Below, piece after piece: positions 16,009 to 36,961 of a stretch of 42,311 nucleotides of DNA. Made by a program: the position numbers and the translations under genes. The stretch comes from an uncultured euryarchaeote (GTDB lineage Archaea > Thermoplasmatota > Poseidoniia > Poseidoniales > Poseidoniaceae): contig CAXDRT010000002.1 in assembly GCA_963991835.1 (NCBI GenBank), forward strand, positions 1-42,311, in the 5' to 3' direction. Below the pieces are notes generated by a model. It had not been told where the DNA came from, searched no databases, and saw nothing but the letters and a program-made list of their open reading frames with translations. The first letter of the stretch is position 1, and each line of letters opens with the position of its first letter.

Positions 16009-16020
16009 TGTATGAATTCC

Positions 16021-16932
16021 TCACTCAACCCAGTCGATTGGATTCTTCAGCAAGGTTTGCATACGTTCTTCCTCACTGTCGGGTTTAATTTCATGACAAT
16101 ATTCCCATCGAGCCGTGAGAGGAAGAGACATCAGTATGCTTTCTATACGCCCATTTGTTTTCAGGCCAAAGGTTGTGCCTCTGTCGTAAACGAGATTGAA
16201 CTCAACATATCTCCCGCGACGAACCTGTTGCCAGTCCTTGTGATGTTCATCATATTCCATATCTTTTCTACGTTCAAGAATAGGAAGATAGGATTCTAAA
16301 AACGATTCAGCGCAATCAGTAACAAAGGCGAAGCATGCTTCTTTGTTATCCCGAAGATCATCGAAAAAGATACCTCCTACTCCGCGTGCTTCCTGACGAT
16401 GAGGAATATGGAAATAATCATCACACCAGTCCTTGAACTTAGTATAATTAGCGACATCATGTCGGTCACAGACCTGTTTCAATGTTGAATGAAAGTGGAT
16501 AGCATCCTCTTCAAAAAGGTAACTCGGAGTGAGATCTGCACCTCCACCAAACCACCAACTCCCTTCTTTTTCTCCATTGCCTCGCTCGAAATATCGATAA
16601 TTTGCATGGACTGTTGGGGCCATTGGATTCTTGGGATGAAGGACCAAACTAACTCCTGTTGCGAAAAAATCGAGATCCTCATCAGCAAGGAGGTGGCCAC
16701 CTCCCATGGCTTTGGCTGCTTCAGGTTCGAGTGTTCCATAAACGACACTTACATTGACACCTGCTTTCTCAAAGACTGAACCTTCGGAGAAGACTCTGCT
16801 GCGTCCTCCGCCTCCCTCTTCTCGTTCCCAAATGTCTTCTCTGTAATCCGTTTCATCAATAAGGCACAATGCCTCACAAATTTCGTCTTGAATGCGGTAC
16901 ACCATGTCAATCATCAGTTGACGCATTCTCAT
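16021..16932 (-). CDS. hemF: Oxygen-dependent coproporphyrinogen III oxidase
   Basis: EREEGGGGRSRVFSEGSVFEKAGVNVSVVYG, HPKNPMAPTVHANYRYFE, WWFGGGADLTPSY, GVGGIFFDDL and RGRYVEFNLVYDRGTTFGL are classical HemF motifs. ATG 16932 overlaps the hemE stop as ATGA. Confidence 0.92.
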   Translation of the reverse strand: MRMRQLMIDMVYRIQDEICEALCLIDETDYREDIWEREEGGGGRSRVFSEGSVFEKAGVNVSVVYGTLEPEAAKAMGGGHLLADEDLDFFATGVSLVLHPKNPMAPTVHANYRYFERGNGEKEGSWWFGGGADLTPSYLFEEDAIHFHSTLKQVCDRHDVANYTKFKDWCDDYFHIPHRQEARGVGGIFFDDLRDNKEACFAFVTDCAESFLESYLPILERRKDMEYDEHHKDWQQVRRGRYVEFNLVYDRGTTFGLKTNGRIESILMSLPLTARWEYCHEIKPDSEEERMQTLLKNPIDWVE

Positions 16933-17960
16933 CCCTCTGTGATTGTTCTCAATACTGCTTCGACACAATCTATTTTCGCTGATGGAGCGAATCCATGACC
17001 GAGATTGAAGATGTGTCCTGGCTTATCGCCAGCTGCATTTAGGACATCGATTGTGGCCTGTTTTGCTGTTTCGACTGACCCATGCATGTACGATGGATCG
17101 AGATTTCCTTGGAACGCAATATCGTTTCCAAATTGTTGACGGTTTTGAGAAAGGTCGTCTCGCCAATCGAGTGAGATGGCCTTAATATCAAATTCACGGA
17201 TACAAGAGTGGAGATGGCCTGAACCCTTTGCATAATGGATGATTGGGACGTGTTTTTCTGTTTTCTCTTTGAAGACTTCTATGGCCCGTTGAGTTGCAGG
17301 CATTGCTAACTCTCGATATGTTGTAGGTGATAACAAACCCGCCCATGTATCAAACAATTGCACTGCATCTGCTCCTCCATGATTCACTTGGTCCGCCAAG
17401 AGTTCACCTACGATTTCCCCCATAGACATTAACATTCGAAGTGCTGATTCACGATCTGAAAATATCTTTGCTCGAGCATTGTGGAAATCTTTGTCCCCAG
17501 TTCCTCCAGAGAGGAGATACATGCAAATCGTCCATGGACATCCTGCAAAGCCAAGACGAGCAAGGCTGTCACCAGTGTGTTCTCCTACAGCTTTGATACC
17601 GTCCGCTGCCCAAGGAGCATGCTTTCTCGCAGAAAATGAAATCCAATCATCAACATCTGAAAGTTCAAAGTCACTAATTCGAATTCCTCCTCCATACTCA
17701 ACATCGTATCCAAGCCCTGGTAATGGAGTAAGAATATCGCTAAAGACAATGGTAGCATCTAATTTCTTGTATCGATTGATTGGTTGAAGCGTTATTTCCG
17801 TGCAAAGATCAACATCTTGACATCGTTCCCAGAATGAATGTTCGGCAGCGATTTTCCTATATTCAGGCAGATGGCGCCCCGCTTGCCTCATGAACCAAAC
17901 AGGAGTTTGATCAACTGGTTGGAGATTTAATGCCCCCAAAATGCGTTCTCTACCGTTCAT
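16929..17960 (-). CDS. hemE: Uroporphyrinogen decarboxylase
   Basis: The signature PVWFMRQAGRHLPEYR lies near the N-terminus. Also present: VFSDILTPL, QLFDTWAG, GNLDP and FNLGHG. Confidence 0.95.
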   Translation of the reverse strand: MNGRERILGALNLQPVDQTPVWFMRQAGRHLPEYRKIAAEHSFWERCQDVDLCTEITLQPINRYKKLDATIVFSDILTPLPGLGYDVEYGGGIRISDFELSDVDDWISFSARKHAPWAADGIKAVGEHTGDSLARLGFAGCPWTICMYLLSGGTGDKDFHNARAKIFSDRESALRMLMSMGEIVGELLADQVNHGGADAVQLFDTWAGLLSPTTYRELAMPATQRAIEVFKEKTEKHVPIIHYAKGSGHLHSCIREFDIKAISLDWRDDLSQNRQQFGNDIAFQGNLDPSYMHGSVETAKQATIDVLNAAGDKPGHIFNLGHGFAPSAKIDCVEAVLRTITEG

Positions 17961-17961
17961 A

Positions 17962-19251
17962 TCAATCCCTCATTTCGAGAAGTACATCATCAAGCGCATC
18001 AACCATGCCTGTGATGTGATGCTCTTCGTGAGCAGTGGCTATGAAACCAATTTCATAGGCAGAAGGAGCGAGCATGTATCCACGTTCAAGCAATCCGTGA
18101 TGTACATCAGCGTAGAGTGTTGCAGCATCCTTTGGAATCATATCAGAGCGGCTCGGTGGAGATTGAGATCCAGGTGAAAACCAGAATAAACTACCTAATC
18201 GCACGAGCCTCATCGGCATGTTATGTTTTTCAAGAACATGTTGTACCTTTTCTTCCAAGAGTGCACCAAGGTGTTCTAATTGGTCATAGGCTTCATCATT
18301 GAGCAACTCAAGAGTTCGAAGTCCAGCCGCCATCGCTAAAGGATTGCCTGAAAGTGTACCAGCCTGATATACGGGACCTAGGGGAGAAAGATGTTCCATG
18401 ATTTCATCACGAGCACCATAGGCTCCGACTGGTAAGCCTCCACCGATGACTTTTCCAAGAGCAGTTATATCAGGGACAATACCACAAAGATCACCATAAC
18501 TTCCATCTTTGAATCGAAAACCGCTAATGACCTCATCAAAAATAAGGAGTGCTCCGTGTGCATCACAAAGGGTTCTGAGATTCTGTAGGAATTCCGTCGA
18601 TTGTATCAACAATCCGTTGTTTGCGGGTAGAGGCTCGATAACAATGGCTGCGATTTCATCACCATGTTCTTGGAAAAGATACTCCACTGCTTCGATATCA
18701 TTTAGTGGTGCTATGAGGGTTGTAGCTACAGTCTGTGCAGGAATCCCTGGACTGCTGGCAATACCGAATGTGGCTAAACCACTGCCTGAACTTACCATTA
18801 AAGAATCGACGTGACCATGGTAACATCCTTCGAATTTGATCAGGATATCACGATTTGTGTAACCTCTTGCAAGACGGACTGCACTCATGACAGCCTCGGT
18901 TCCTGAAGAAACAAATCGAACTTTATCCATGTGCTTGAAGCGCTTTTTTACGTGTTTTGCGAGTTCAATCTCCCCGATATGGGGTGCTCCGAAAGAAGTT
19001 CCATTCTGCATTTTTTCAGATACAGTTTGGATAATGCTCGGGTGAGCATGCCCATGTATCAATGGCCCCCACGATTGGACAAAGTCAACAAGTTCGTTAC
19101 CATCAACATCGGTCACAATTGCACCAGAGGCTTTTTCAAAATAAATCGGGTTTCCATGCACTGATTTGAATGCTCGAACAGGCGAATTTACTCCACCTAC
19201 AAGATGAACTGAAGCTTCAGTGTGCAGTTCATTTGACAGAGAACGATCCAT
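17962..19251 (-). CDS. hemL: Glutamate-1-semialdehyde 2,1-aminomutase
   Basis: GGVNSPVRAFKSV, FVSSGTEAVMSAVRLARGYT, LIFDEVISGFR, the PLP-lysine context LGKVIGGGLPVGAYG and YQAGTLSGNPLAMAAG. It is 429 aa long. Confidence 0.95.
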   Translation of the reverse strand: MDRSLSNELHTEASVHLVGGVNSPVRAFKSVHGNPIYFEKASGAIVTDVDGNELVDFVQSWGPLIHGHAHPSIIQTVSEKMQNGTSFGAPHIGEIELAKHVKKRFKHMDKVRFVSSGTEAVMSAVRLARGYTNRDILIKFEGCYHGHVDSLMVSSGSGLATFGIASSPGIPAQTVATTLIAPLNDIEAVEYLFQEHGDEIAAIVIEPLPANNGLLIQSTEFLQNLRTLCDAHGALLIFDEVISGFRFKDGSYGDLCGIVPDITALGKVIGGGLPVGAYGARDEIMEHLSPLGPVYQAGTLSGNPLAMAAGLRTLELLNDEAYDQLEHLGALLEEKVQHVLEKHNMPMRLVRLGSLFWFSPGSQSPPSRSDMIPKDAATLYADVHHGLLERGYMLAPSAYEIGFIATAHEEHHITGMVDALDDVLLEMRD

Positions 19252-19260
19252 GGTAAAACC

Positions 19261-20235
19261 TCATTCAATCCATTGCTGACCAATCGCATCTCGGGCATGG
19301 TAAGATACTATGATGTCAGCACCCGCTCTTTTGAAGGCATGTAATATCTCACGAACCATCTTTCCACATTGATCATTTTCTTGGTTTGCCTGCATAACCA
19401 TTGTGTACTCGCCACTAACATTGTAGACAGCGACTGGGCGATTGACTGCGTCTGCGACTTGACGAAGAACGTCAAGATAAGGCAAACCTGGCTTAACCAT
19501 GATGATGTCTGCGCCTTCAGATTCGTCTGACTTCGCCTCAAAGATAGCCTCCGAATAACCCGAACGGATATCCATTTGATGGCTTCTACGATCACCAAAT
19601 ATTGGGGCAGAAGATGCTGCGTCTCTGAATGGTCCATAAAATGATGAGGCATATTTGACAGCGTAGGAAAGTACTCCTGTGGAATGAAATCCTCGTGATT
19701 CAAAAGCGTCTCTGATAGCCGAAACTCGACCATCCATCATATCTGAAACCGAAACATAATCTACGCCTGCTTCTGCATTTGCTAGTGCAATCTCAACCAA
19801 GCGTTGCACACTCTGGTCATTGTTGATGTGATCATCCAAAATTAGACCGCAATGGCCGTGATCTGTTGCAGTACACAAACAAACGTCCGTGAACAAAACA
19901 ATCTGATCACCAAAACGTTCTCGTAATTTTCGAACAGCTTGTATACCGTGCATTTGAGCATCAGATGCAACAGTAGCCATTGCATCTTTATGATCTGATT
20001 CGATCACTGCAAACAGCATGTGAGCATTTAGGCCAATAGAGACGTCATTGGAAATCGTTTCGAGTAAAACATCGACTGATTGCCGATGTATACCTGGCAT
20101 ACCATCGATGGGCTGGTTAATATTTTCACCAGCTACAACAAAGTGAGGTTGAACAAGTGATTGGGAAATCGAGGCCCCAAAGATGAGGTCTCGCCGGGAT
20201 TGAGTCCAGCGGTTAATTCTCGGTCGTGTTTGCAT
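19261..20235 (-). CDS. hemB: Porphobilinogen synthase (delta-aminolevulinate dehydratase), Zn-type
   Basis: The cysteine-rich metal site DVCLCTATDHGHCG marks a Zn-dependent enzyme. Also present: SDMMDGR, YASSFYGPFRDA, MVKPG.PYLD and AYNVSGEY. Start taken at ATG 20235 (MQTRPRINR), which overlaps the hemC-hemD 3' end by 23 nt. The track ORF extends to 20304. Confidence 0.93.
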   Translation of the reverse strand: MQTRPRINRWTQSRRDLIFGASISQSLVQPHFVVAGENINQPIDGMPGIHRQSVDVLLETISNDVSIGLNAHMLFAVIESDHKDAMATVASDAQMHGIQAVRKLRERFGDQIVLFTDVCLCTATDHGHCGLILDDHINNDQSVQRLVEIALANAEAGVDYVSVSDMMDGRVSAIRDAFESRGFHSTGVLSYAVKYASSFYGPFRDAASSAPIFGDRRSHQMDIRSGYSEAIFEAKSDESEGADIIMVKPGLPYLDVLRQVADAVNRPVAVYNVSGEYTMVMQANQENDQCGKMVREILHAFKRAGADIIVSYHARDAIGQQWIE

Positions 20236-21928
20236 CGTTCTCACCCCTTTTGTTCCACCATTCGGATATAAATTCTGCAGTAGGTCCATCGAGCACTTCC
20301 ACAACAGATTGTGAAAATTCTGGGAGTGTTTCTATATGTTCCTTTGTGCTTTGTCCCATACACAGTATATTTGTTGGTATTGGTAAAGCATTCTCAACCC
20401 ATGACCTCGCTGAAGAAGAAGAGGAGAGAAGAAGAGTGTCCTTCTCAGAATCAATATCGACCGTCGAAACAGACTTCATTTGATTTTCATACCCAGTCCA
20501 TACACTCACATCATAGCCTTCTGAAGTGAGTATGTCATTCAAGAACGATGGAGCAAGATCAGAGCGAGGTAACAAAAGAGGTGTGCTTTTAGGAATCTTG
20601 TCGATAATGAATTTAGCGAACTCTTTCGAGTTTCTTGCTTGAGCACATACCGATACGGTCACTCCCAATCGAAAACAAGCGCGAGCGGTTCCTTCACCGA
20701 TTGCCATCCATTGAATGCGTTTTATGTCCTCATTCTTTTGAGAGATTTCAACTGCACAGCGGGCTGCGAAGGGAGAGGTGAGCACAAGGTAGGGCCACGA
20801 TGAACGATTACTATTCGGATCTAAGAACTGGGACGGCCAGTTAGAATAATTCGGACTCAGTGTCACCACAGACTGGTTTACAACTGGAATTCCTTTACTT
20901 TGCAACAGAAGCGAAAGGCGGTCTGAGTTAAGCGTTGATACGATTTTTGGACCCTCGATTTTATCGTTACTCGTTTCTGAAGTTTCTTCAGGAAGAGTAA
21001 TCTGAAGATCGGTCAAATTTCCATCATAATGGAAGGTTGGAAACGATCGGCCTTGACAAAAAATAGTGCGCCAATTTTCTGGAGAGATTTTTACAGTTAC
21101 GCTCTGTTCTTCAACTTGAATCCCAGCAGGGTATAGGCACCCTCCACCTACCGATGAAAGAAGAGCACGTTCATGAACAACGGCTTCTTCTGTTGGTTGA
21201 TGATTGAGTAAAGAACGCACTGAAGAGTACTTTTGTTTATCCTTGGAAAGGCAATGTACGCTGATTGCGCCTTGTCCAGGGGCAGTGGGCCATTGTTGAT
21301 GTGAAAGTCGTACAGCTCCAAAATTCAGCATCCATGGCTCCAATACCTCTGCATCGAGCAAACGCTGGAGTCCAACTTCTGCAAGGACAATGCAATCAAC
21401 ACGACCCTCTTGAAGCCGTTTCAATCGAGTTTCGACGCGTCCTCGGACTGCAAGGGGAATCAAATCAGGGCGCTGACTCAATAGAAACGACTGCCGGCGA
21501 CCAGATACTGTTCCAACTGTGCTTCCTTTTGGAAGGAAATTCAATGCTGTTTCGATTTCAATGGATTCTTGACAAGACAACACTTCTTGCAATGTTTGGC
21601 CATTGTCAGAATTTGCGAAGAGCAAAACGTCATTTTTCGAACCTCGTTCTAAGTATGCCAAACAATCGATTGAATCATCGATCTTAACGGGGACATCTTT
21701 ACTTGAATGAACTGCTAAGTCAATTTCTCCATCGATTAGTTGCTTGTCCACTGCGTGAATAAACTGTCCAACTTCAGAAGAAAGATCCCCTCCTAGAGAA
21801 CGATCGCCAGAAGTGGAAATACCTACGAGTTTGGTTTCAACACCCTTCTCATTCAGCAATTTTTCAACCTGACGAGCCTGCCACATCGCTAATGCCGAAG
21901 TTCTCGTACCGATACGGAGCAATGACAA
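20213..21928 (-). CDS. hemC: Bifunctional hydroxymethylbilane synthase / uroporphyrinogen-III synthase (HemC-HemD fusion)
   Basis: The N-terminal ~300 aa carry LRIGTRTSALAMWQA, AVHSSKDVP, RGRVETRL and the dipyrromethane cysteine in VGGGCLYPAG, so this part is HemC. The C-terminal ~250 aa (WPYLVLTSPFAARCAV...LLPRS...LLLSSSSSARSW) follow the HemD pattern. The TTG start at 21928 is preceded by GGAGG (21936-21940) at 7-nt spacing. Confidence 0.88.
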   Translation of the reverse strand: MSLLRIGTRTSALAMWQARQVEKLLNEKGVETKLVGISTSGDRSLGGDLSSEVGQFIHAVDKQLIDGEIDLAVHSSKDVPVKIDDSIDCLAYLERGSKNDVLLFANSDNGQTLQEVLSCQESIEIETALNFLPKGSTVGTVSGRRQSFLLSQRPDLIPLAVRGRVETRLKRLQEGRVDCIVLAEVGLQRLLDAEVLEPWMLNFGAVRLSHQQWPTAPGQGAISVHCLSKDKQKYSSVRSLLNHQPTEEAVVHERALLSSVGGGCLYPAGIQVEEQSVTVKISPENWRTIFCQGRSFPTFHYDGNLTDLQITLPEETSETSNDKIEGPKIVSTLNSDRLSLLLQSKGIPVVNQSVVTLSPNYSNWPSQFLDPNSNRSSWPYLVLTSPFAARCAVEISQKNEDIKRIQWMAIGEGTARACFRLGVTVSVCAQARNSKEFAKFIIDKIPKSTPLLLPRSDLAPSFLNDILTSEGYDVSVWTGYENQMKSVSTVDIDSEKDTLLLSSSSSARSWVENALPIPTNILCMGQSTKEHIETLPEFSQSVVEVLDGPTAEFISEWWNKRGENDANTTEN

Positions 21929-21939
21929 CTGGAATCCTC

Positions 21940-23463
21940 CTATGCTGTGGTTTTTGTGCTCAATCGATAAACGAGTTGTTGTACATCATGAGCAACTTTC
22001 TGCAATAGGGTTTGATTGAGTTCTCGTTTTGTTTGGAAAATCATATCTCCAATCTCATCGATTGAAAAACCACCTTTTTTGTTGCATATCCATGTAGCAA
22101 TCTCTCTTGAGAACGGTTGTATCTGGGCTTCTTCTGTTGACATTACTGAATCATTTGACAACCACTCCAATGAGAGTTCCTCAAGGAGTTTGTACATACG
22201 AGATCGAAACATTGCTTCGTTACGGTCTGTAAGAGCTGCCATGAACTTTGATTCAACATCTGAGATGGCAACTTCGCTTTTTTTAATCGTTGAAGTATAA
22301 TCCCATTCCTTTCCGTATTGACGGGATTCTCGAATCCAGTGCTGCATACCAAAGTAGTTCGATTCGTTTGCTAGTATCGAAGAATCAATCGAAGGTGGCC
22401 ATGAAAAATCCATCACAACTGCATCTTCATCAACCGGCAATGGTGTATTTTGATTGTAGACCGGTGTTTCTGCACGAATGGTTGAAATTACGAGTTTCGT
22501 TTTATTGGCAGATCTGTGCCATTCTTCGAATGAAATTAGACGAACTTTTTTAACGAGTTCTGGATATTTAGATTGACTCTTTCCTATTGACCGGGATACG
22601 ACTGTAACATCACTTTGCCCAAGTTCTAATAGTGCAGATATTGCTTTTAGCCCCATGTCTCCAAAACCAAGTACAACAGGAGAAACATCTGAGTTTTCTG
22701 AGAGGATTTTTTCCAAACTATTCGTTGCAAGATTCAGCATAGATTCAGTTGTATTTGTAAAACCAAATTCCTTCCTTATGGTACGATTAGCCGCAATGAT
22801 ATGATCAAAAAATGTTCCCTTGTGGACGCTGAGAAGATCGTTCTTTTTGTGCCAAGCGATAGCATCTCTGAATTGTGCCATTACTTGCAATTCTCCCAGC
22901 ATGAAGGAGTCTAAACCGCTGCATATTTTCACTAAATTACGCCAAACGGACATGCCTGAATATTTCTTGAAGGGCGCTTCCTCTAATTCGAATGCTTCCA
23001 ATATAGATTTTTCAAGGAGGTCGCATGTTGTGGAAAAACCAACGTAGAGGACTCGATTACACGTTGAGAATTCAAATATTTCTTCTCCTAAATTTGAGTT
23101 GATTCTTCTAATAAGGTCGAGCCGTTGATTCAGAGTAAGGCCTTCGGACGTTAAGGATTTTACAACTTCTACGTTTCCTGGGGCCAGTTTTATTGAGATC
23201 ATGGAAAGGCCATCGAGAACTGATTGATGCCCTGTTGACCCGGCAGCCATTGGATTCGTGTGGCTAAGCGAGGAGTTTGACAATATGATTTTGTTGCTTC
23301 CGCTAACCATTTCATCGCCCCCTGTTAGTGGCGGGGCAAAACAAGTATACGAACCCTTGTTCATTGAATTCAGTTCAAATATCTCGCAGTAGGCCGAATA
23401 TACAGATTTTATCTGCTTCAATGCAGATGAAGTGATTTCTAACCGAAGAGAATTTTTCCACAC
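21940..23463 (-). CDS. hemA: Glutamyl-tRNA reductase (N-terminal boundary uncertain)
   Basis: Has the active-site motif FSTCNRVLYVGF and the NADPH fold VVLGFGDMGLKAISALLELG. The longest ORF starts at GTG 23463. Alternative starts are ATG 23310 (preceded by AGGGGG) and ATG 23202 (MISIKLAPG). The last one puts the catalytic Cys at the usual position of ~48. Confidence 0.85.
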   Translation of the reverse strand: MWKNSLRLEITSSALKQIKSVYSAYCEIFELNSMNKGSYTCFAPPLTGGDEMVSGSNKIILSNSSLSHTNPMAAGSTGHQSVLDGLSMISIKLAPGNVEVVKSLTSEGLTLNQRLDLIRRINSNLGEEIFEFSTCNRVLYVGFSTTCDLLEKSILEAFELEEAPFKKYSGMSVWRNLVKICSGLDSFMLGELQVMAQFRDAIAWHKKNDLLSVHKGTFFDHIIAANRTIRKEFGFTNTTESMLNLATNSLEKILSENSDVSPVVLGFGDMGLKAISALLELGQSDVTVVSRSIGKSQSKYPELVKKVRLISFEEWHRSANKTKLVISTIRAETPVYNQNTPLPVDEDAVVMDFSWPPSIDSSILANESNYFGMQHWIRESRQYGKEWDYTSTIKKSEVAISDVESKFMAALTDRNEAMFRSRMYKLLEELSLEWLSNDSVMSTEEAQIQPFSREIATWICNKKGGFSIDEIGDMIFQTKRELNQTLLQKVAHDVQQLVYRLSTKTTA

Positions 23464-23833: not shown

Positions 23834-24727
23834 TCACTCTTCTTCCAATTTCTGCGTAACGCTTGACGGTAGAAGAATTGTCCACCATGGATGCTTTTTC
23901 CGAACCTTGTCGTCATTAAACAAAGAACGTGCAAATTTCGAGAGAATATCAAGAACTAACACGACGATGAAAATCACAATTACATAGGCAAAGACCTTGT
24001 CGTATTGCAAGAATTTGAGATAGAGATTGATGTAATATCCAATGCCTCCAGCACCGACAATTCCGATTACTGTTCCATGTCTGAAATTGTATTCAAACAT
24101 AAACACTGCCTGAGAGATCAGGTTGTTTGCTGACTCTGGTAAAATGACACCAAATGAACGTTCGAGCCAACCATGACCCATTGCTCTTGAGGCATCAAGT
24201 TGGGGTTGAGCAACCCCTTCAATGACTTCATATTGCAACTTTCCAAGATAGCCAACGGTATACAATGTCATTGCCATAATACCAGCCATAGGCCCTAATC
24301 CGACCATGATCACGAACAAAACTGCCCAGAGAATACTTGGTAGACTTCTCAAACCAGCGAGAAGAGCACGAGCGGGATAAGAGATCCAAGCAGGGCTAAG
24401 ATTCTCTGCTGCCAACAGCGCAATTGGATAAGAAATTATCATACCAAATACGGTCGCTATGAAAGCAATTTTTAGAGTTTCAAGAAGGCCTATCCAAGCA
24501 GTGGAACAGGTGAAATCAAGCCATCCTGTTTCCTCGCAAACAGGATACGCCTGTGGTTCTAAAACACTCCAATCGGGTGGCCATAAGGATTCTGTGAAAA
24601 AGGTCTGAACATTGCGAGGGCTATCGAATAGTTTTTGCCAATTTCCTTCAATAGCGGAATTTGTTACCCCGATTGCAAGAGAGAGTAGGATAATGAAAAT
24701 ACTAACCCATCTCCATTGATACCACAA
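23834..24727 (-). CDS. ABC transporter permease, PhnE family
   Basis: Carries the PhnE hallmark EYNFRHGTVIGIVGAGGIGYYI plus the EAA-like loop region and six predicted TM helices. It has a TTG start at 24727, and there is no in-frame ATG upstream. Confidence 0.85.
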   Translation of the reverse strand: MWYQWRWVSIFIILLSLAIGVTNSAIEGNWQKLFDSPRNVQTFFTESLWPPDWSVLEPQAYPVCEETGWLDFTCSTAWIGLLETLKIAFIATVFGMIISYPIALLAAENLSPAWISYPARALLAGLRSLPSILWAVLFVIMVGLGPMAGIMAMTLYTVGYLGKLQYEVIEGVAQPQLDASRAMGHGWLERSFGVILPESANNLISQAVFMFEYNFRHGTVIGIVGAGGIGYYINLYLKFLQYDKVFAYVIVIFIVVLVLDILSKFARSLFNDDKVRKKHPWWTILLPSSVTQKLEEE

Positions 24728-24795
24728 TGAAGCGATTTGAGTGGCTAGTTTTGATTGATCTTTTTCATCATACTCATCTGAAACAATCTCACCTC

Positions 24796-25473
24796 CTAGA
24801 ATTCATATATTTCGACTAATTCTCCGCTTTTAGCAGTGAATAGACGGTTTGCCATCCGCTTTGCTCTTTCAAAATCGTGTTCGACAAGTATCATGATTGC
24901 ATTATTTTCGGCGACGTAATCAAGCACTACCTTCATCACCATTTCAAGAGTCTCTTCATCAAGTTCAGCTAAGAATTCGTCTGCTAAAATAAGCCGAGGC
25001 TGTTGCGCCAGTGTTCTGGCGACTGCAACACGTCTCTGCTGTCCCCCTGATAATTTTCGAACTGGAGTTCTGAGTTTATGATAAATGCCAACGGAATCGA
25101 TTGCATCATCAGAGAATTTTCGACAAGATGGAGAGAAAGGCCACCATGGCGAGGTATGACCTGCTCGTGCCCCAAGCATGACATTGTGTAGAACACTTGC
25201 GTGTCTTATCAGACCCAAGCGCTGCGGAATGTATCCTACTTCCCCTCTTCGAGGTTTACTCTTTCCGAAAATATTGAACTCTCCTTCGAGTGGTTCAAGC
25301 AAACCTGCTAAGGTCTTCAGCAGAGTTGTTTTACCAATTCCGGAAGCTCCGTTTATTGCAATAATCTCACCTGGATTAAACGTAAAGTTAACCCTTGAAA
25401 GGAGAGGTTCACTGACCTTGTAGCCAACAGAACCAGATTGAACAACTACGTTATTCGTTGATGTCACGTTCAA
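24796..25473 (-). CDS. ABC transporter ATP-binding protein, PhnC-like
   Basis: Walker A is GASGIGKTT, the signature is LSGGQQRRVAVAR, Walker B is LILADEFLAELD and the H-loop is LVEHD. It has a TTG start at 25473 and no in-frame ATG nearby. Confidence 0.85.
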   Translation of the reverse strand: MNVTSTNNVVVQSGSVGYKVSEPLLSRVNFTFNPGEIIAINGASGIGKTTLLKTLAGLLEPLEGEFNIFGKSKPRRGEVGYIPQRLGLIRHASVLHNVMLGARAGHTSPWWPFSPSCRKFSDDAIDSVGIYHKLRTPVRKLSGGQQRRVAVARTLAQQPRLILADEFLAELDEETLEMVMKVVLDYVAENNAIMILVEHDFERAKRMANRLFTAKSGELVEIYEF

Positions 25474-25530
25474 TCACACCGTTGTCCATCAAACGAAATA
25501 CAATCGTTCAGTGGTTATCGGTCAACACAC

Positions 25531-27651
25531 TTAGATATCGTATTTTCCATCAAAGTATGCAGAGATACCTGGGACGTTTGAAATCGAATCAGAATAGCTT
25601 CCCATGTGCTCCTGTGTGTTTACGGCAATGAGCCCACCTGTGTTCAATATTTCAGGAAGAATTGAATCTCCACACATATTTTCAGGAATATCACGGTCGA
25701 CTTCATGAGTGATCTGGTTGTAACAGTATCCAGTACCTTCCTCAATCCAAGCCTCGCCATTCATGTCCATTAGAGCATTCAAGATTGCAGCTCGGGTGTA
25801 CATGTCCATCATCGCAGGATTGAACATGACAGGATGGCTTGGAGCCTTTCCAAAGAGTGGTAGTGCCACGTATCCAGACGAACCGTTTTCAGTTTCTAAA
25901 CACCAGTTTCTTTGCTTCTGAACACAGTTGAAATCGTAGGTTGTATCTGCAATGAATGCAATATCTCCACGACCTTCTGAGAGGCATCGAAGTGCTCCGT
26001 CGTAACTGTAATAGAAGTCTCCTGACTCAGGAATTGATGCATCTTCGTTAAAGAAATTGAAGATTGTTGAGCGAAGAGATGCCACGTCATCAGGGTCTCC
26101 AATAACGTCAGCGTAGCCATTTCCTATGAGGTAACCCATTGGGAGAAGCATCCCTGCCGATTTCAGCCAACCTGTGTGACAGGATGTCTTTCCTCGGAAC
26201 AGTTCAAACGGATCTGTTGAGTCATCATCATCAAGATAGGCTTCAGCAATGTCGCTTCCTGCTTTGACGTAGGCTTGTGCACCATACCAAGAACGGCCAT
26301 CGGGTTTCAAGTCTGCAGCTAGTGCAGAGAGACCGTATTCTTTCCAGCCAACCCACGCTGCTCCTCCGTCCATGAAACCGATGTCTGCATGACCAAATCG
26401 AAGAGCCTCAATAATCGCTCCTTCAGAGGCGACATCGTACAATTCCACATCAACACCGAGTTTCATAGAGAGGCGATCTGCCAGGATTTGCGGATTACCA
26501 TCGATGTTTTCGTACGTATCACGAACTTCATATGCAATTACAATCGGGTTTTTCGTCGGTTGTACAGAAGTGTTTATTCCATATTTACCGCCGTAGTACG
26601 CCTGGATTCCAGGGACGTTTCGAATTGCTGCAGAGTATGTCCCCAAGTGATCTTCTGTTGTTCCTACATCGACGATTCCACTTGGAGAGTTGATGATGTC
26701 GTCAAGAATATCTTCTCCAACTTCATCGTCTTCCATTGCGACAAGTACCTTTCGGACAATGTCAGCCTTCTCATCGCTCATTGTCGCAGGATTGTACATA
26801 ACTGGATGTCCTGGAGCACGTCCGAAGATTGGTAATTCCACGTATTCGGTTTCATCAAGGCACCAAGTGTTGCTGTCTGCACGGTCTACACAGTAGTAGT
26901 CGAGAGTTGTATCAGCAACAAATGCGATATCGCCTCGGTCCTCAGACAAACATCGAAGAGCTCCTTTGTAACTGTAGTAAGTGTCTCCTGTTTCAGGAAT
27001 TGATGCGTCTTCGTTAAAGTATTCGTAAATCGTATTTCGCATTGATTCAACAGTATTTGGATCGCCGATTACATTCGCATACCCATTCCCAATCAGATAG
27101 CCCATTGGGAGAAGCATACCTGCCGATTTTAACCATCCTGTGTGACACGATGTTTTTCCTTGGAAGAGGGCGAATGGGTCGGTGTAGATGTCATCATCAA
27201 GATGCGCATCTGCCATATCCGTACCTGCTCGAATGACGGCTCTTGCGCCGTACCAAGTCCTTCCATCGGGTTTGGTTTCTGATGCTAGGACGCCGAGGTC
27301 ATACTGTTGCCATCCAACCCATGCAGATCCCCCGTCCATGAATGCGATATCTGCATGGCCGAAACGAAGGGCTTCTATTGAAGCTCCTTCTGAGCCTACA
27401 GCGTACAATTCTACTGGTGCGTTGAGTTTCTCTGAGAGATAATCTGCAAGACGTTGAGGGTTATCATCGATGTTGGTATATGTCTCTCGTACTTCATAAG
27501 CGACAACCAATGAATCGATTTGACCTGATTCATCGACATCAGCCTTTTCATCATCTTCTCCCAGACATCCTGAAAAGGTTACTGAGAGCATAAATGCGGC
27601 CATAAAAACTGCTTTTAGATAGTTGCGTGATTTCGTGTTCATGTGTTCCAC
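25531..27651 (-). CDS. Two-lobed transferrin-like / PhnD-family substrate-binding lipoprotein (predicted Fe3+-plus-synergistic-anion binding protein)
   Basis: Signal peptide followed by the lipobox-like FSGC. Two homologous ~322-aa lobes each contain (A/G)FMDGG, WYGA(R/Q)A, SCHTGWLKSAG, YYSY.GALRCLSE.RGDIAF, AP(G/S)HPVM and Y.....(R/S)NVPG. These correspond to the transferrin Asp63, Tyr95, Thr120/Arg124, Tyr188 and His249 contexts. EALRFGHADI is PhnD-like. Confidence 0.85.
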   Translation of the reverse strand: MEHMNTKSRNYLKAVFMAAFMLSVTFSGCLGEDDEKADVDESGQIDSLVVAYEVRETYTNIDDNPQRLADYLSEKLNAPVELYAVGSEGASIEALRFGHADIAFMDGGSAWVGWQQYDLGVLASETKPDGRTWYGARAVIRAGTDMADAHLDDDIYTDPFALFQGKTSCHTGWLKSAGMLLPMGYLIGNGYANVIGDPNTVESMRNTIYEYFNEDASIPETGDTYYSYKGALRCLSEDRGDIAFVADTTLDYYCVDRADSNTWCLDETEYVELPIFGRAPGHPVMYNPATMSDEKADIVRKVLVAMEDDEVGEDILDDIINSPSGIVDVGTTEDHLGTYSAAIRNVPGIQAYYGGKYGINTSVQPTKNPIVIAYEVRDTYENIDGNPQILADRLSMKLGVDVELYDVASEGAIIEALRFGHADIGFMDGGAAWVGWKEYGLSALAADLKPDGRSWYGAQAYVKAGSDIAEAYLDDDDSTDPFELFRGKTSCHTGWLKSAGMLLPMGYLIGNGYADVIGDPDDVASLRSTIFNFFNEDASIPESGDFYYSYDGALRCLSEGRGDIAFIADTTYDFNCVQKQRNWCLETENGSSGYVALPLFGKAPSHPVMFNPAMMDMYTRAAILNALMDMNGEAWIEEGTGYCYNQITHEVDRDIPENMCGDSILPEILNTGGLIAVNTQEHMGSYSDSISNVPGISAYFDGKYDI
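25534..27516 (-). repeat. Intragenic tandem duplication (2 x ~966 bp) encoding the two lobes of the transferrin-like protein
   Basis: Residues ~46-367 and ~368-706 align almost without gaps and are roughly two-thirds identical by eye. The DNA is also similar at an offset of 966 nt: cccattgggagaagcatccctgccgatttcagccaacctgtgtgacagg starts near 26135, and cccattgggagaagcatacctgccgattttaaccatcctgtgtgacacg starts near 27101. Confidence 0.85.
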
Positions 27652-27683: not shown

Positions 27684-27697
27684 TTAGGGCTCCCTAA
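27684..27697. promoter_or_regulatory. Perfect palindrome TTAGGG-CT-CCCTAA in the divergent promoter region (candidate operator)
   Basis: 6-bp arms with a 2-nt centre. It lies 33-46 nt upstream of the transferrin-like gene's ATG (27651, minus) and 42-55 nt upstream of ATG 27739 (plus), next to A/T-rich TATA-like tracts. This is a single occurrence, so statistical support is weak. Confidence 0.3.
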
Positions 27698-31561: not shown

Positions 31562-32704
31562 GTGCGTACTGTCAAGTTCAATGTCCCTTACCTTAGTGGG
31601 AACGAAAGGGACTACATCAATGAAGTATTCGATAGTGGAGAGTTTTCTGGCAATGGAGTATTTACAAAGAAGGCACAATCAATGCTTGAAAATCACTTAT
31701 CCGCGCATCGAGTGTTACTAACACATAGTTGCACAGGAGCACTCGAAATGGCCGCTATGCTCGCTGGCTTTGGTCCAGGTGATGAAGTACTCGTTCCATC
31801 GTTTACATTTGTAACAAGTGCATCTTCCATCATGAGGACAGGAGCAACAGTCGTTTTTTGTGAAATAAATCCAGATACAATGCTGATCGATTTAGATGAT
31901 CTAAAGACGAAGATTACCCCGAAGACAAAGGGTATCGTCGCTGTTGATTATGCAGGATATGGCAACGATTATGAACAAATAAATCAGATTTGTGAGCAGT
32001 ATAATCTCACATGCATCGAAGATGCTGCTCAAGGACTGGGCTCATACTGGAAAAACAGGGCATTAGGAACACATACTCGTTTTGGAGCAATCTCTTTTCA
32101 CCAAACAAAAAATATTCATTCAGGTTTAGGGGGTTGCCTGATAATCAACAATCAAGAAGACGTAAACAAGGCAGAAATGGTTTGGGAAAGAGGGACTGAT
32201 CGAAGTGCCTTTTTCAAAGGCTTAGTGGACAAATACAGTTGGCAAGAAGTGGGATCTTCCTTCTATCCAAGTGAACTGCAGGCTGCTTTTTTGTGCGCTC
32301 AATTAGAAAGCATCAACGAAAATCTATCCGCCAGAAGAGATTTGTGGAATTATTATGAGGAACTACTGAGTCACCTAGAAAAGAATGATTCATTCAAGAT
32401 ATTACGACCTCCAATCGAAAGTGAACACAACGCCCATATGATGGCTATCCAGTTTCCGACTTCAAAAATAGCCGATTCTGCACGTATGTATCTTAATGAA
32501 AATGGTGTACAAGCGGTGATTCATTATGTTCCATTACATTCATCCCCAGTGGGAGAGAAATTAGGTTATTCCGAGAGAGATTTACCAGTAACTGCACAAG
32601 CTGCTGCTTGTTTAATCAGATTACCACTCCACCTCTCGATGGAGAAGAGTGACATTGATTATGTGGTTAAGATTCTTCAAGAATATGTTTCCGACGCTGA
32701 TTGA
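31562..32704 (+). CDS. wecE: dTDP-4-amino-4,6-dideoxyhexose (WecE-like, DegT/DnrJ/EryC1 family) PLP-dependent aminotransferase
   Basis: Collinear with E. coli WecE through FNVPYLSGNERDYINEV, VLLTHSCTGALEMAAML, GDEVLVPSFTFV, EDAAQG, the PLP-lysine context FHQTKN, GTDRSAFFKGLVDKYSWQEVGSSF and NAHMM. Confidence 0.9.
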   Translation: MRTVKFNVPYLSGNERDYINEVFDSGEFSGNGVFTKKAQSMLENHLSAHRVLLTHSCTGALEMAAMLAGFGPGDEVLVPSFTFVTSASSIMRTGATVVFCEINPDTMLIDLDDLKTKITPKTKGIVAVDYAGYGNDYEQINQICEQYNLTCIEDAAQGLGSYWKNRALGTHTRFGAISFHQTKNIHSGLGGCLIINNQEDVNKAEMVWERGTDRSAFFKGLVDKYSWQEVGSSFYPSELQAAFLCAQLESINENLSARRDLWNYYEELLSHLEKNDSFKILRPPIESEHNAHMMAIQFPTSKIADSARMYLNENGVQAVIHYVPLHSSPVGEKLGYSERDLPVTAQAAACLIRLPLHLSMEKSDIDYVVKILQEYVSDAD

Positions 32705-33374
32705 TGTGTTCAAAGACGTAACAAACTACGTAGAAAACCATCACTCCTAAGATTGGAGAACTGATGAATTTGATCCAATTTTCCAATAATGGATCGCTGA
32801 CCGTAGAATCCGTGGTAAAAAATCCACCTGATAATGTCCAACTTACCGCTCGAACTCCCAGGAACATTCCAAAGAGAACAGATACTATTTCTAAATCATT
32901 ATCCATCTTAACGTTCTCAATAATTACGGCTAATACGGCGAATATCAATACACTACTAAGACCAAATCCTGTAAAAATAGACAGGAAGAGTTCATGGCTA
33001 AGTGTGAAAACAATCATCACGTTTGAATACAGAGACAAACTGATCATTTGTTCTATTTCATTCACCTGCGTGAGAATCAATGCGATGTTGAGAAGAAACA
33101 GGCCATTACTCACAACTTCTTGCTCAGAAACAACCACAACTCCTGCAAAGAGAACGCCTCCAATAACCCATAGAATGGATTCATAGGCAACGTTTTGGTT
33201 CAATTGCTTATTTTTTAGCCAGATGATGGCCATCATTGCTACAGGAAGCGTATATTCTTTATCAGGAAGAAAGAGAAGAAGAAACGTTGCAAACGGTAGA
33301 ATATACTGTGTAAAAATGCTCAATTTATTTCCAATTGCATCAGGGGCTAGAGCGGAGAAGCCCCCTTGTGACAT
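32667..33374 (-). CDS. Polytopic membrane protein of unknown function
   Basis: About 7 hydrophobic segments and no recognisable family. ATG 33374 (MSQGGFSAL) is preferred over the TTG at 33392 used by the track. Its 3' end overlaps the convergent wecE-like gene by 38 nt. Confidence 0.5.
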   Translation of the reverse strand: MSQGGFSALAPDAIGNKLSIFTQYILPFATFLLLFLPDKEYTLPVAMMAIIWLKNKQLNQNVAYESILWVIGGVLFAGVVVVSEQEVVSNGLFLLNIALILTQVNEIEQMISLSLYSNVMIVFTLSHELFLSIFTGFGLSSVLIFAVLAVIIENVKMDNDLEIVSVLFGMFLGVRAVSWTLSGGFFTTDSTVSDPLLENWIKFISSPILGVMVFYVVCYVFEHINQRRKHILEES

Positions 33375-33442
33375 AGTGTTTGGTAGAGACAATCATAATT
33401 AAATTTAGGTAATCCTAAAAATGACTTCTGTTTGGGCTAAGT

Positions 33443-35265: not shown

Positions 35266-36096
35266 TTACTTCAGTATTGAACGAGCCTGTTTGACGAGCT
35301 TTACGAGTTCAACTCTCGCCTCATCTGAATTTTTAACATCATTACTGAATGCAAGACGTATCGGTTTCTTTCCAGATTCGGTGGTTGCCATCATTTCGAA
35401 CCCATACCTATCGATTGCAGTCATAACCGCTTCAGAAGTATCGATTGCTTTACTCATTGCCTTACAATAAAGAACAAGAGCATCTGCATGATCTTCATTC
35501 ATGTGGGTGATGATATCTTCAGAGAATTCATCGACAGGATCAGCTTCAGCATCACCCCATCTGGAACCACTCACCCATGACATTCGTCCAAATCCACCGA
35601 TGTAGCGTACGGAATCAACAGAGAGACGGAAAAAAGCAAAATCCTCCCAATCTGCGTATACGGATGCACTCTCGTGAGCCTCAAGGAAAGCATGTTTTGC
35701 AGCGTCTCTATCTTCACCAGTAATTTCTCGACATTCACCAACAAGAGTCACTCGACCAAGCGCCAGCGGGTTTCCTTCCCCAGTCTCTGCAATAAGCAAA
35801 GATGTCTTTGAATTCTGATTCAAATTTTTGGTATGTTCGGCAAGTTGGCTCAACAAAAATATTGGGTCACCCTCGTGCATAGCATACGTGACATAGGAAC
35901 CATATGGATATCCTTCGGATTTTGTTGAGATTGTGCATAATGTCGCAATATTCATTCTCGAAGCAAGAGTTCGAGCATATTCTGCATGCGATGGTTTTGC
36001 TACGTTTTTGTCATACAGGAGTTCTGGTTTGGAAGACCCATCTGCGTCTGGGGATGCATGTTTTGTAAATTTTTTATGCTCATTATCATTGCTCAT
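35266..36096 (-). CDS. Pyridoxamine-5'-phosphate-oxidase-like split-barrel + DUF2470 protein (HugZ/HutZ heme-degrading enzyme / GluTR-binding-protein family)
   Basis: ARTLASRMNIATLCTIS...GYPYGSYVTYA...PIFLLSQLAEHTKNL...GRVTLVG...FFRLSVDSVRYIGGFGRMSWV has the split-barrel pattern. The C-terminal IITHMNEDHADALVLYCKA is the DUF2470 signature. ATG 36096 overlaps the ATPase gene's 3' end by 11 nt. Confidence 0.75.
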   Translation of the reverse strand: MSNDNEHKKFTKHASPDADGSSKPELLYDKNVAKPSHAEYARTLASRMNIATLCTISTKSEGYPYGSYVTYAMHEGDPIFLLSQLAEHTKNLNQNSKTSLLIAETGEGNPLALGRVTLVGECREITGEDRDAAKHAFLEAHESASVYADWEDFAFFRLSVDSVRYIGGFGRMSWVSGSRWGDAEADPVDEFSEDIITHMNEDHADALVLYCKAMSKAIDTSEAVMTAIDRYGFEMMATTESGKKPIRLAFSNDVKNSDEARVELVKLVKQARSILK

Positions 36097-36961
36097 ATGT
36101 CTCACCTTTTGTATTGCTCATGTCCTCTACAGGAACACTCTCATGTTTCGCTGCTATTGTGTTTTGTGGTTCTTTAAGTTCATCTTTCACGAAGACTCGA
36201 AGGGGTTCGGAGACAGAGGTTGGTAACGAAATTTCAGAAGTTACATCAAAAACTTTCGCTATATTTTCAGATGTCAATACCTCGATAGGAGTTCCATCAG
36301 CGACTATTTCCCCATCCGATAGAAGAATAATTCGATCCGAAAACCTTGCTGCAATATTGATGTCATGTATGGCAATGAGAGCTGATTTTGGCGATTCTGT
36401 ATCTGAGACAAGCGACTTCAATTTCTTCATCACTTGAATTTGATTCTTCAAATCTAAATCACTCGTAGGTTCGTCGAGTAAGAATAATTGGGGTTCTTGG
36501 GCAATCGCCTTGGCGATGATAATTCTCTGACGCTCTCCACCCGATAATTGGTTGAATTTCCTAAATGCAAAATCTTCTAAATTCAAAAATCGAAGTGTAT
36601 CACTTACTACTTTTCGGTCATTTTCTCCTATTCTCCAGTTGATGTATGGCCTACGTCCAAGCAAGACAACATCAAAAACATCCATCGAAAAACTTGAACG
36701 AACTGATTGAGGTACATAGGAGATTAATTTAGATATTTCAACTAAATCTAATTCATTTAAATCCATTGATTTAAGTTTGATTTCAGCCGTTTGAGGCGTG
36801 ATAATTCTATTTAGACATTTGAGTAACGTCGACTTTCCTGCCCCGTTTATTCCAAGTATGGACACAAGTTCATTTTCAGGGATTGATAATTCGATCTCTT
36901 TCAAAACGTGATTATCTCCGTAACTAAACGAGAGATTTTGAACTTCTAGTAAATTACCCAT
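36086..36961 (-). CDS. ABC transporter ATP-binding protein, iron-chelate/heme/cobalamin (FepC/HmuV/BtuD) type
   Basis: LEVQNLSFSYGDNHVLKEI, Walker A GINGAGKST, signature LSGGERQRIIIAKA, Walker B LFLLDEPTSDLD and H-loop IAIHD. Confidence 0.88.
   Translation of the reverse strand: MGNLLEVQNLSFSYGDNHVLKEIELSIPENELVSILGINGAGKSTLLKCLNRIITPQTAEIKLKSMDLNELDLVEISKLISYVPQSVRSSFSMDVFDVVLLGRRPYINWRIGENDRKVVSDTLRFLNLEDFAFRKFNQLSGGERQRIIIAKAIAQEPQLFLLDEPTSDLDLKNQIQVMKKLKSLVSDTESPKSALIAIHDINIAARFSDRIILLSDGEIVADGTPIEVLTSENIAKVFDVTSEISLPTSVSEPLRVFVKDELKEPQNTIAAKHESVPVEDMSNTKGETYEQ

Follow-up and report, generated by a model that had tools for sequence, protein, structure and literature searches.

Introduction

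In the iron-binding proteins FbpA and FutA, also called "bacterial transferrins", Fe(III) is held by tyrosine ligands together with a synergistic anion, which is either phosphate or carbonate. In human transferrin (Tf), the iron site is formed by Asp63, Tyr95, Tyr188 and His249, with Thr120 and Arg124 at the anion site. The diatom phytotransferrin ISIP2a has PF07692 as its functional domain (PMC7966952), and phytotransferrin and transferrin have been proposed to share an origin among the phosphonate-binding proteins, as stated in a passage of PMC7676907 that cites McQuaid 2018. Here we describe a locus of three genes at positions 23834..27651 in a stretch of 42,311 nucleotides from an uncultured member of the Poseidoniaceae (contig CAXDRT010000002.1; the whole stretch is hereafter called the window). 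The locus encodes a two-lobed substrate-binding protein (SBP) of the transferrin/PhnD family, an ATP-binding cassette (ABC) ATPase and a PhnE-type ABC permease, and on the sequence evidence it is probably a metal-regulated, binding-protein-dependent ABC importer for Fe(III).

Marine Group II (MGII), to which the archaeon of the window belongs, is among the most abundant archaeal groups in the surface ocean, and none of its members has been cultured. In a comparative study of MGII, phosphonate transport was listed among the core traits (PMC6336850), and this call probably rests on the locus described here. We compared the window with 90 related loci (91 with the window included, totalling 1.22 Mb); counts of gene content refer to 79 loci unless another number is given.

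Results

A two-lobed lipoprotein encoded with an ABC transporter

The three genes are located on the minus strand. The SBP gene (25531..27651), recognized from its open reading frame (ORF) and Pfam matches, encodes a lipoprotein of 706 amino acids (aa) with an isoelectric point of 4.2. It is followed by the ABC ATPase gene (24796..25473; 225 aa), the product of which matches ABC_tran with 102.3 bits and is devoid of a C-terminal regulatory domain, and by the PhnE-type permease gene (23834..24727; 297 aa), identified from BPD_transp_1 and TIGR01097 and presumably forming a homodimer, as there is a single permease gene. A preliminary description of this DNA had placed the three ORFs at these coordinates and had noted a GAGGIG motif in the permease, and we found the same.

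The SBP begins with a signal sequence that ends in the lipobox FSGC (27565..27651, minus strand; residues 1-29), in which G28 and C29 are invariant among 29 orthologues; AGC and SGC lipoboxes were also found in related single-lobe proteins. An acidic linker (residues 30-45) precedes lobe 1 (26572..27516, minus strand; residues 46-360), which is followed by lobe 2 (25534..26550, minus strand; residues 368-706). The two-lobed architecture of the preliminary description was recovered with these boundaries, and the lobes are 59% identical to each other (BLASTP, E 1e-142), or 64.7% identical over trimmed alignment columns. Lobe 2 contains an additional insertion of about 25 residues that bears Cys643 and Cys660.

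Four public contigs carry an identical 706-aa protein with unchanged gene order. The nearest database orthologues of the SBP are from Candidatus Poseidoniaceae, and relatives with about 60% identity are from Thalassarchaeaceae; the name given to such relatives by NCBI is "PhnD/SsuA/transferrin family substrate-binding protein". The SBP gene is adjoined by the ATPase gene in 73 of the 79 loci and by the permease gene in 64, and the linkage of all three spans genomes labelled as MGIIa, MGIIb and Marine Group III (MGIII).

Putative iron and anion ligands in both lobes

Alignments to the human Tf N-lobe (MAFFT) and to lactoferrin (HMMER) placed the residues of the transferrin iron site in both lobes of the SBP. 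D106 and D428 align with Asp63, Y134 and Y456 with Tyr95, Y228 and Y550 with Tyr188, and H282 and H606 with His249. At the anion site, T171 and T493 align with Thr120, and K175 and K497 with Arg124; the proposed site in lobe 1 also includes the helix N-terminus S176-A177-G178. The human Tf sequence was validated by a full-length match of 583.9 bits to PF00405. All eight ligands, as well as T171 and K175, are those named in the preliminary description; for lobe 2 its Thr and Lys are present, but the numbering (T492/K496) was off by one and should read T493/K497.

Among 29 orthologues, the most distant of which have 60% identity, the twelve site residues do not vary, apart from H282, which is conserved in at least 90% of these proteins. 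A D-Y-C-T-K-Y-C-H pattern is present in every lobe of the one-, two- and three-lobed forms from MGII. The motif SCHTGWLKSAG, found in both lobes, aligns with SCHTGLGRSAG of transferrin, with the Thr kept and the Arg changed to Lys. A Lys at this position was also found in most of the relatives from protists.

Two transferrin disulfides, C118-C194 and C227-C241, had been claimed to have equivalents in the SBP. The equivalent of the former stands, as C169-C234 corresponds to it in the MAFFT alignment, while the latter holds only by half: C264 aligns with C227, but C241 has no equivalent, and C254, located upstream, is the likely partner of C264. The C254/C264-type cysteine pattern is common to ichthyosporean transferrins and is not that of human transferrin.

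A paralogous group of two-lobed proteins in MGII (P0121, P0122, P0125, P0126, P0133), 32-45% identical in phmmer alignments, has kept the fold and the cysteines and has lost most of the Asp/Tyr/Tyr/His residues in both lobes. One of these genes (L007:9541-11661) is located in tandem with a gene that has the full ligand set. The existence of such ligand-poor paralogues shows that the Asp/Tyr/Tyr/His set is not merely a constant of the family, and the group would make a natural negative control.

Family assignment

The complete SBP was matched by both Phosphonate-bd (PF12974; 124.6 bits) and Transferrin (PF00405; 111 bits), and the latter score, compared with a cut-off of 20.3, makes a chance match implausible. 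Scored separately, the lobes gave near-equal values for the two families, with 67.8 and 62.0 bits for lobe 1 and 62.9 and 55.3 bits for lobe 2. The same two models were applied to reference sequences. The Phosphonate-bd and Transferrin scores were 268 bits and no match for E. coli PhnD, 171 and 22 for P0203, 95 and 36 for the Heimdallarchaeota protein P0239, 86 and 80 for the Thermoplasmatota single-lobe protein P0146, 68 and 62 and 63 and 55 for the two lobes of the window, 47 and 113 (46.7 and 112.8) for the Abeoforma protein P0164, and 24 and 584 for the human N-lobe. Since this calibration series is monotonic, the archaeal lobes are intermediate between PhnD and transferrin in a measurable sense. 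Judged from these scores, the SBP is a member of the transferrin family at the sequence level and equally of the PhnD family, and its branch (Poseidoniales/Thermoplasmatota) appears to lie roughly halfway from PhnD-type oxyanion binders to eukaryotic transferrins.

More specific NCBIfam models were not reached. The SBP scored 53.8 bits on the PhnD equivalog TIGR03431 (cut-off 261.1) and 90.3 bits on the phosphate/phosphite/phosphonate subfamily model TIGR01098 (cut-off 112.05). The best NCBIfam match of the ATPase was PhnC, with 139.9 bits and below the cut-off of 266.1, and there is a further resemblance to AztA and MntA, which are ATPases for zinc and manganese. Among the best 60 of 95-97 PDB sequence matches, obtained with the whole protein or lobe 1 as query, all were from the transferrin family (best E 3e-23). 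No member of the FbpA/FutA family was found in these 60 matches or in the Pfam and NCBIfam matches, and the SBP had no match to PF07692 (Fea1) in the Pfam scan. An exhaustive search with lobe 1 against 1.84 billion representative proteins recovered 316 relatives at E <= 0.001, which are from MGII and other Thermoplasmatota, eukaryotic transferrins, and one protein from Heimdallarchaeota.

The binding pocket compared with PhnD and PtxB

Profile alignment of the SBP to E. coli PhnD with hhalign (probability 97.6%, 17% identity) was consistent with the MAFFT alignment. Tyr95 of Tf, Y134 of the SBP and Tyr93 of PhnD share one position, and this is the only residue at a ligand position common to the SBP and PhnD. 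The equivalent of His249 of Tf is H282 in the SBP and Asp205 in PhnD; Y228, the equivalent of Tyr188, is placed beside His157 of PhnD; and D106, the equivalent of Asp63, corresponds to a Tyr in PhnD, while Tyr47 of PhnD corresponds to Glu88 in the SBP. The helix N-terminus that binds the anion reads Ser-Thr-Ser-Gly in PhnD and Lys-Ser-Ala-Gly in the SBP, and is thus partly kept. The roles of the PhnD pocket residues Tyr47, Tyr93 and Ser127-Thr128-Ser129 were reportedly described by Alicea et al. in 2012.

Roles in the PhnD pocket have been described for His157, Asp205 and Glu177 (PMC5700983). The specificity "cap" is Asp205, to which the amine of 2-aminoethylphosphonate is bound, and the phosphite-specific PtxB has Tyr208 at the same position (PMC5700983). 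Five of the six pocket positions of the SBP are in the transferrin state, and the residue set of the PhnD pocket is not present. A tblastn search with E. coli PhnD gave no match to SBP-type genes in the 91 loci.

Structure models

The full-length AlphaFold model was of moderate quality, with a mean predicted local distance difference test score (pLDDT) of 73.8. Its top Foldseek matches were only bilobal transferrins (E ~1e-26), at a low global template-modelling score (TM-score) that is consistent with lobes packed in another way, and these matches included transferrin entries with Yb, Ti, Al, Bi and Cr. The AlphaFold2 model of lobe 1 had a pLDDT of 89.8 and a predicted TM-score (pTM) of 0.85, and its best Foldseek matches were transferrin lobes, mostly in open or apo forms (query TM-score, TMq, 0.62-0.66). 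Apo PtxB matched lobe 1 almost equally well: the fold of lobe 1 supports membership of the superfamily, but it does not separate transferrin from PhnD and was rejected as a discriminator.

A putative operator and a candidate regulator

The SBP gene is preceded by the palindrome TTAGGGCTCCCTAA (27684..27697), which is located in a divergent intergenic region of 87 base pairs (bp). Its position, 33-46 bp ahead of the SBP start codon, overlaps with that of a T-rich, TATA-like stretch. The consensus of this putative operator family is TTTAGG-N4-CCTAAA. Exact TTAGG-N4-CCTAA sites occur 149 times in the 1.22 Mb, as compared to about 1.3 expected from base composition. Of 78 loci, 61 have the operator ahead of the SBP gene, in many cases as a tandem pair, and it occurs across orthologues that are only 57% identical. 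Its pattern agrees with positions 6-19 of the IdeR/DmdR1 iron box, TTAGGTTAGGCTAACCTAA (PMC4598388, PMC7174319).

A gene for a regulator was identified next to the SBP gene in one locus, L087, from an MGIII-labelled member of the Poseidoniia. This 244-aa protein with Fe_dep_repress, Fe_dep_repr_C and FeoA domains is encoded at 7133-7867(-), divergently from the SBP gene, and three operator copies are located between the two genes (7820-7890), of which one is identical to the core of the DmdR1 box. Neither the window nor any other fetched locus was found to encode a further DtxR-family regulator.

The operator also precedes Fea1-family genes in four of five loci. In MGIIb (Thalassarchaeaceae), an extra copy is located between the SBP and ATPase genes (L001:2681-2694, and likewise in L030, L032, L037, L083 and L090), which suggests a separately controlled internal promoter. 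The window contains a second copy, TTAGGTAATCCTAA (33405..33418), between a gene for a multi-pass, hydrophobic membrane protein (32667..33392, minus strand), directly upstream of which it lies, and a nucleoside triphosphate (NTP)-transferase gene that starts at 33443 on the plus strand. The same position is occupied by an operator in all six loci with this gene pair, the window included. The membrane protein, which had no match in Pfam, is a candidate member of the regulon. The NTP-transferase gene belongs to a glycosylation cluster. In L002-L004, the PHO4/PhoU intergenic region is devoid of the operator, and none was found ahead of the FecCD-type operon in the window.

Genes linked to the binding protein in related loci

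In several related loci, the SBP gene is part of a string of genes on the same strand and with short gaps. In L020, L021 and L025, one string contains an operator pair followed by Fea1, the SBP, a surface protein of about 786 aa, Peripla_BP_2, FecCD, an ATPase, flavodoxin and a HugZ-like gene. Shorter strings consist of an operator pair, the SBP, flavodoxin, the ATPase and the PhnE-type permease (L031), of an operator, a single-lobe SBP, the ATPase, the permease and flavodoxin (L042), and of Fea1, the SBP, a ligand-degenerate paralogue and flavodoxin (L007 and L008). In L005, a three-lobed relative of 1156 aa is encoded directly before a FecCD-type cassette. The Fea1-family proteins of the Poseidoniales match PF07692 with 80.6 and 93.2 bits. 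Their genes (L002:722-2254, L007:6143-7261, L021:3434-4894, L025:2080-3567 and L020:267-1457) are often located directly upstream of the SBP gene.

Genes for phosphonate breakdown were said in the preliminary description to be missing from the window, which agrees with our searches. No C-P (carbon-phosphorus) lyase, phnWX or ptxD family was identified in Pfam scans of the larger ORFs of the window, with the sequence search aimed at C-P lyase only. That search (tblastn with E. coli PhnG, PhnH, PhnI, PhnJ and PhnM) gave no match in the window or in the 90 related loci, so the homologues are not linked to C-P lyase.

Relatives and evolution

A bootstrapped neighbour-joining tree of 69 lobes recovered an MGII clade with 85% support, in which both lobes of the window are placed. 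Deep nodes had a bootstrap support of only 22-31%, and no conclusion on the direction of descent was drawn from the tree. Identity is 59-65% between the archaeal lobes and 24-34% between these and any eukaryotic lobe, so the archaeal lobe duplication was probably separate from the eukaryotic one, although this evidence is weak. The closest eukaryotic relatives of the archaeal lobe are the transferrins of unicellular holozoans (ichthyosporeans and corallochytreans), with 29-34% identity.

The number of lobes varies within the Thermoplasmatota, from single-lobe proteins, which are 317-355 aa long apart from a 409-aa protein that has a membrane anchor at its C-terminus, to two-lobe proteins and a three-lobe protein of 1156 aa. 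Complete ligand sets are present in the variants L005:2018-5488 (P0086), L042:7902-8954, P0123, P0146 and P0135. Two further single-lobe proteins, P0239 from a Heimdallarchaeota metagenome-assembled genome (MAG) and P0203, have Asp/Tyr/Thr/Tyr/His at the ligand positions and are devoid of the cysteines and of the Lys. Both score far higher on Phosphonate-bd than on Transferrin, and they may represent an earlier stage of a series from PhnD to transferrin. Giant transferrins of 1415-2661 aa (P0124, P0134, P0138, P0150, P0151) were found in Chromosphaera, Corallochytrium and unidentified eukaryote-like sequences. P0124 and P0138 contain four to five resolved full lobes, P0134 has up to 13-14 matched stretches, and the ligand set is kept in most of the resolved lobes of these proteins. 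Four contigs from MAGs or single-amplified genomes are labelled as Rhodobiaceae, Salinimicrobium, Yoonia and Deltaproteobacteria (L016, L078, L088, L089). Because their genes are 56-90% identical to MGII genes, these are probably mis-binned or contaminated assemblies.

Other features of the window

A second importer, of FecCD type, is encoded on the minus strand at 35266..41473, 8 kb from the SBP locus. Pfam matches identify a 793-aa surface protein with CarboxypepD_reg, Peripla_BP_2, FecCD and an ATPase, followed by a HugZ-like gene (PNPOx/CREG and DUF2470), the product of which resembles heme-degrading enzymes of the HugZ type. This cassette recurs in the strings of L020, L021 and L025 and behind the three-lobed gene of L005. 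The unit may serve uptake and utilization of heme or an iron chelate. Directly downstream of the permease gene, Pfam scans identified a complete heme pathway with hemY-like, hemF, hemE, hemL, hemB, hemCD and hemA genes (14752..23463, minus strand) and ferrochelatase (13727..14755, plus strand). Porphobilinogen deaminase and uroporphyrinogen-III synthase are fused in a single ORF of 571 aa (hemCD; 20213-21928(-)), the 3' end of which overlaps the hemB ORF (19261-20304(-)) by 92 bases; in public gene calls, hemB starts later (324 aa).

An acidic ORF of 83 aa (23581-23832(+)), for which no family match was obtained in Pfam, separates the permease gene from hemA and lies on the strand opposite to these two genes. 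It has also been called as a gene on contigs of the window's own species (L009-L011), and similar small ORFs form a family in 12 related loci. The 1194-aa protein encoded at 4911-8495(+) has a thrombospondin type 3 repeat and weak beta-propeller matches, and is probably a large surface protein.

Discussion

Proposed function and alternatives

The preliminary description had proposed that the locus encodes a ferric-iron importer. The ligand set, the iron-type operator, the L087 regulator and the co-operonic flavodoxin, Fea1, FecCD and HugZ-like genes all support this proposal, and we consider an Fe(III) importer the probable function. By this reading, the 706-aa protein would, after export, be held at the outer face of the membrane by a lipid on its lipobox cysteine. 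By homology to transferrin, each lobe, in itself a full binding module of two domains, would clamp one Fe(III) between the Asp, the two Tyr and the His, together with a synergistic oxyanion, probably carbonate, that would be held by the Thr, the Lys and the helix N-terminus. The linkage of the three genes suggests that a loaded lobe docks on a homodimeric PhnE-type permease and that the ATPase drives release of the iron into the channel. A metalloregulator of the DtxR/MntR family is predicted to bind the TTTAGG-N4-CCTAAA operator, which overlaps the promoter, and to respond to metal, such that the operon would be repressed at metal sufficiency and de-repressed when metal is scarce.

Several observations weigh against an iron importer. 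The Arg at the anion site is replaced by Lys in the alignments, and the anion-site loops (residues 173-177 and 494-499) are the parts of lowest confidence in the full-length model. The commonest neighbours of the cassette are housekeeping genes (G3P dehydrogenase, a TIM-barrel protein and riboflavin genes). Adjacency to the heme cluster was found only on contigs of the window's own species, with hemA in none of the 79 other loci; being species-specific, it was rejected as general evidence for iron and is kept as local context only. Other points speak for import of a phosphorus oxyanion (phosphite, phosphonate or phosphate), the function implied by the names that annotation pipelines assign. 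The Tyr, His, Asp and Thr residues would then form hydrogen bonds to the anion, similar to those in PhnD and PtxB, and its transport would be the task of the PhnE-type permease. Phosphonate-bd is the top Pfam match and scores slightly above Transferrin, PhnC is the best match of the ATPase, the permease exceeds the cut-off of the PhnE equivalog TIGR01097 (235.9 bits, cut-off 216.7), and apo PtxB ranks seventh among the structural matches of lobe 1 (TMq 0.64; target TM-score, TMt, 0.79). To our knowledge, all characterized members of the PhnE transporter family move phosphorus oxyanions, not cations. The PhnD pocket likewise uses Tyr, His and Asp, with Y134 homologous to Tyr93, and PHO4, PhoU and TauE genes are located beside the cassette in one lineage (3 of the 79 loci). 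Phosphonate transport is moreover the listed core trait of MGII (PMC6336850), and the absence of C-P lyase is a weak argument when taken alone, since catabolic genes need not be linked to the PhnDCE systems of marine organisms, as in Prochlorococcus, where PhnDCE binds phosphite without linked utilization genes (PMC5700983). However, five of the six pocket positions have the transferrin residue, including the cap, at which Asp205 of PhnD is replaced by H282 (PMC5700983). The PhnD equivalog and subfamily models were not reached, E. coli PhnD found no SBP-type gene, and the ligand-losing paralogues indicate that the Asp/Tyr/Tyr/His set is not simply inherited with the family. The operator is of the DtxR/IdeR type and is not found at the PHO4/PhoU promoter region, the SBP gene shares operons with those for flavodoxin, Fea1 and FecCD-type proteins, and C-P lyase was found in none of the 91 loci. 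Taken together, the operator, the iron-marker neighbours and the missing C-P lyase favour iron over phosphorus, and we regard a phosphorus importer as unlikely.

A second alternative is that the substrate is a different metal, such as manganese or some other hard cation, perhaps in complex with an anion, and that an MntR-like regulator controls the operon. The best NCBIfam matches of the L087 regulator are MntR-type models (100.4 bits, as compared to 48.3 for DtxR-type models, all below cut-off), so the metal sensed could be manganese, which also counts against iron. DtxR-family boxes are common to iron- and manganese-responsive regulators, the ATPase resembles AztA and MntA, and transferrin sites accept many metals, as the Yb, Ti, Al, Bi and Cr entries of the fold search illustrate. 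On the other hand, Asp/Tyr/Tyr/His with an oxyanion is the classic hard-acid site for Fe(III), whereas the known binding proteins for Mn(II) and Zn(II) belong to another class of fold and hold the metal in His/Glu/Asp sites. The linked genes are also specific to iron (flavodoxin, Fea1, the FecCD-type importer and the HugZ-like gene, with heme synthesis and ferrochelatase in the window), and another metal as substrate seems to us quite improbable. It is also conceivable that the SBP binds iron and does not serve the adjacent permease, acting instead in surface capture, buffering or sensing that feeds other routes, with the PhnE-type transporter carrying something else. In L020, L021, L024 and L025 the SBP is found with Fea1 and a FecCD-type system and has no PhnE-type permease next to it, a further point against the proposed importer; the three-lobed form (L005) and the tandem paralogues (L007) suggest a role in capture, and eukaryotic transferrins are carriers rather than partners of ABC transporters. 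Yet the order of SBP, ATPase and permease genes is kept across MGIIa, MGIIb and MGIII-labelled genomes in the proportions given above, no other binding-protein gene is found with this permease in the window, and the operator between the SBP and ATPase genes in MGIIb would place the transporter under the same control. We therefore consider a binder that is uncoupled from its neighbouring permease very improbable.

Implications

If the locus is an iron importer, the phosphorus ecology attributed to MGII needs to be corrected, and a defined route of high affinity to inorganic iron would be available to a major group of heterotrophs. This route could be dependent on carbonate and hence sensitive to ocean acidification, like that of diatom phytotransferrin. 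Within the transferrin family, the SBP would be the first binding protein of an ABC transporter, and the PhnCE transporter family would gain its first iron substrate. The operator and its putative regulon (SBP, Fea1, flavodoxin) would provide markers of iron stress for uncultured archaea.

The proposed descent of transferrins from PhnD-like proteins would also become directly testable by way of a graded series that runs from PhnD through the single-lobe proteins of Heimdallarchaeota and Thermoplasmatota and the two-lobe proteins of MGII to the transferrins of protists and animals. On the scores and alignments, this series is compatible with descent of transferrins from archaeal binding proteins of this kind. 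In a more specific scenario, the iron site of transferrin arose in ABC binding proteins of the Thermoplasmatota/Poseidoniales from PhnD-like stock, and a holozoan ancestor of animals acquired it from a marine prokaryote. We hold this scenario to be possible but doubtful; if true, the archaeal proteins would be the surviving stock of blood transferrin, still in its original transporter context.

Comparison with known systems

Our literature search retrieved no report of archaeal, MGII or prokaryotic transferrins, nor of archaeal Fea1. The eukaryotic transferrins (serum transferrin, lactoferrin, ovotransferrin and melanotransferrin; PF00405) resemble the SBP in the fold of the lobe, the Asp/Tyr/Tyr/His set, the Thr and the helix N-terminus, the SCHTG...SAG motif, the C118-C194 disulfide, the C-terminal Y..AIRN motif and the tandem arrangement of two lobes. 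The SBP lobes are 24-30% identical to the human N-lobe and differ by the Lys at the anion site, by the absence of most disulfides and by another partner for C227. They score as strongly on Phosphonate-bd as on Transferrin. The SBP is predicted to be lipid-anchored and is encoded with an ABC transporter, whereas transferrins are soluble carriers that are taken up by receptor endocytosis.

PhnD, PtxB and HtxB with their PhnC/PhnE transporters (PF12974) share with the SBP the superfamily, the fold, the type of transporter partners and the layout of the operon, and PhnD also shares Tyr93 (Y134) and the anion-binding helix N-terminus. The SBP is about 16% identical to E. coli PhnD, and the ligand and cap residues of PhnD are replaced by those of transferrin (PMC5700983). 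It further differs from these proteins in being composed of two fused lobes with disulfides, in its DtxR-type operator and in having no linkage to C-P lyase. FbpA and FutA with FbpBC-type importers are similar by analogy in the proposed delivery of Fe(III) to an ABC permease, but the SBP belongs to another family of binding proteins and its permease is of the PhnE type.

The transferrins of unicellular holozoans (Chromosphaera, Corallochytrium, Creolimax, Amoebidium, Ichthyophonus and Abeoforma) have the D-Y-C-T-K-Y-x-H pattern with Lys at the anion site and the C-x(8-12)-WC cysteine pattern, as do the archaeal lobes. Those proteins are eukaryotic, contain from one to five or more lobes and have no ABC partner, and they score much higher on Transferrin than on Phosphonate-bd (112.8 and 46.7 bits), while the scores of the SBP lobes are near-equal. 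Phytotransferrin (ISIP2a/Fea1) of marine algae, which works by endocytosis and not through an ABC transporter and which contains the PF07692 domain not matched in the SBP, is similar in the surface-anchored capture of Fe(III) in iron-poor seawater, the role proposed here for the SBP. The archaeal genes of the Fea1 family share the operator, and sometimes also the operon, with the SBP gene.

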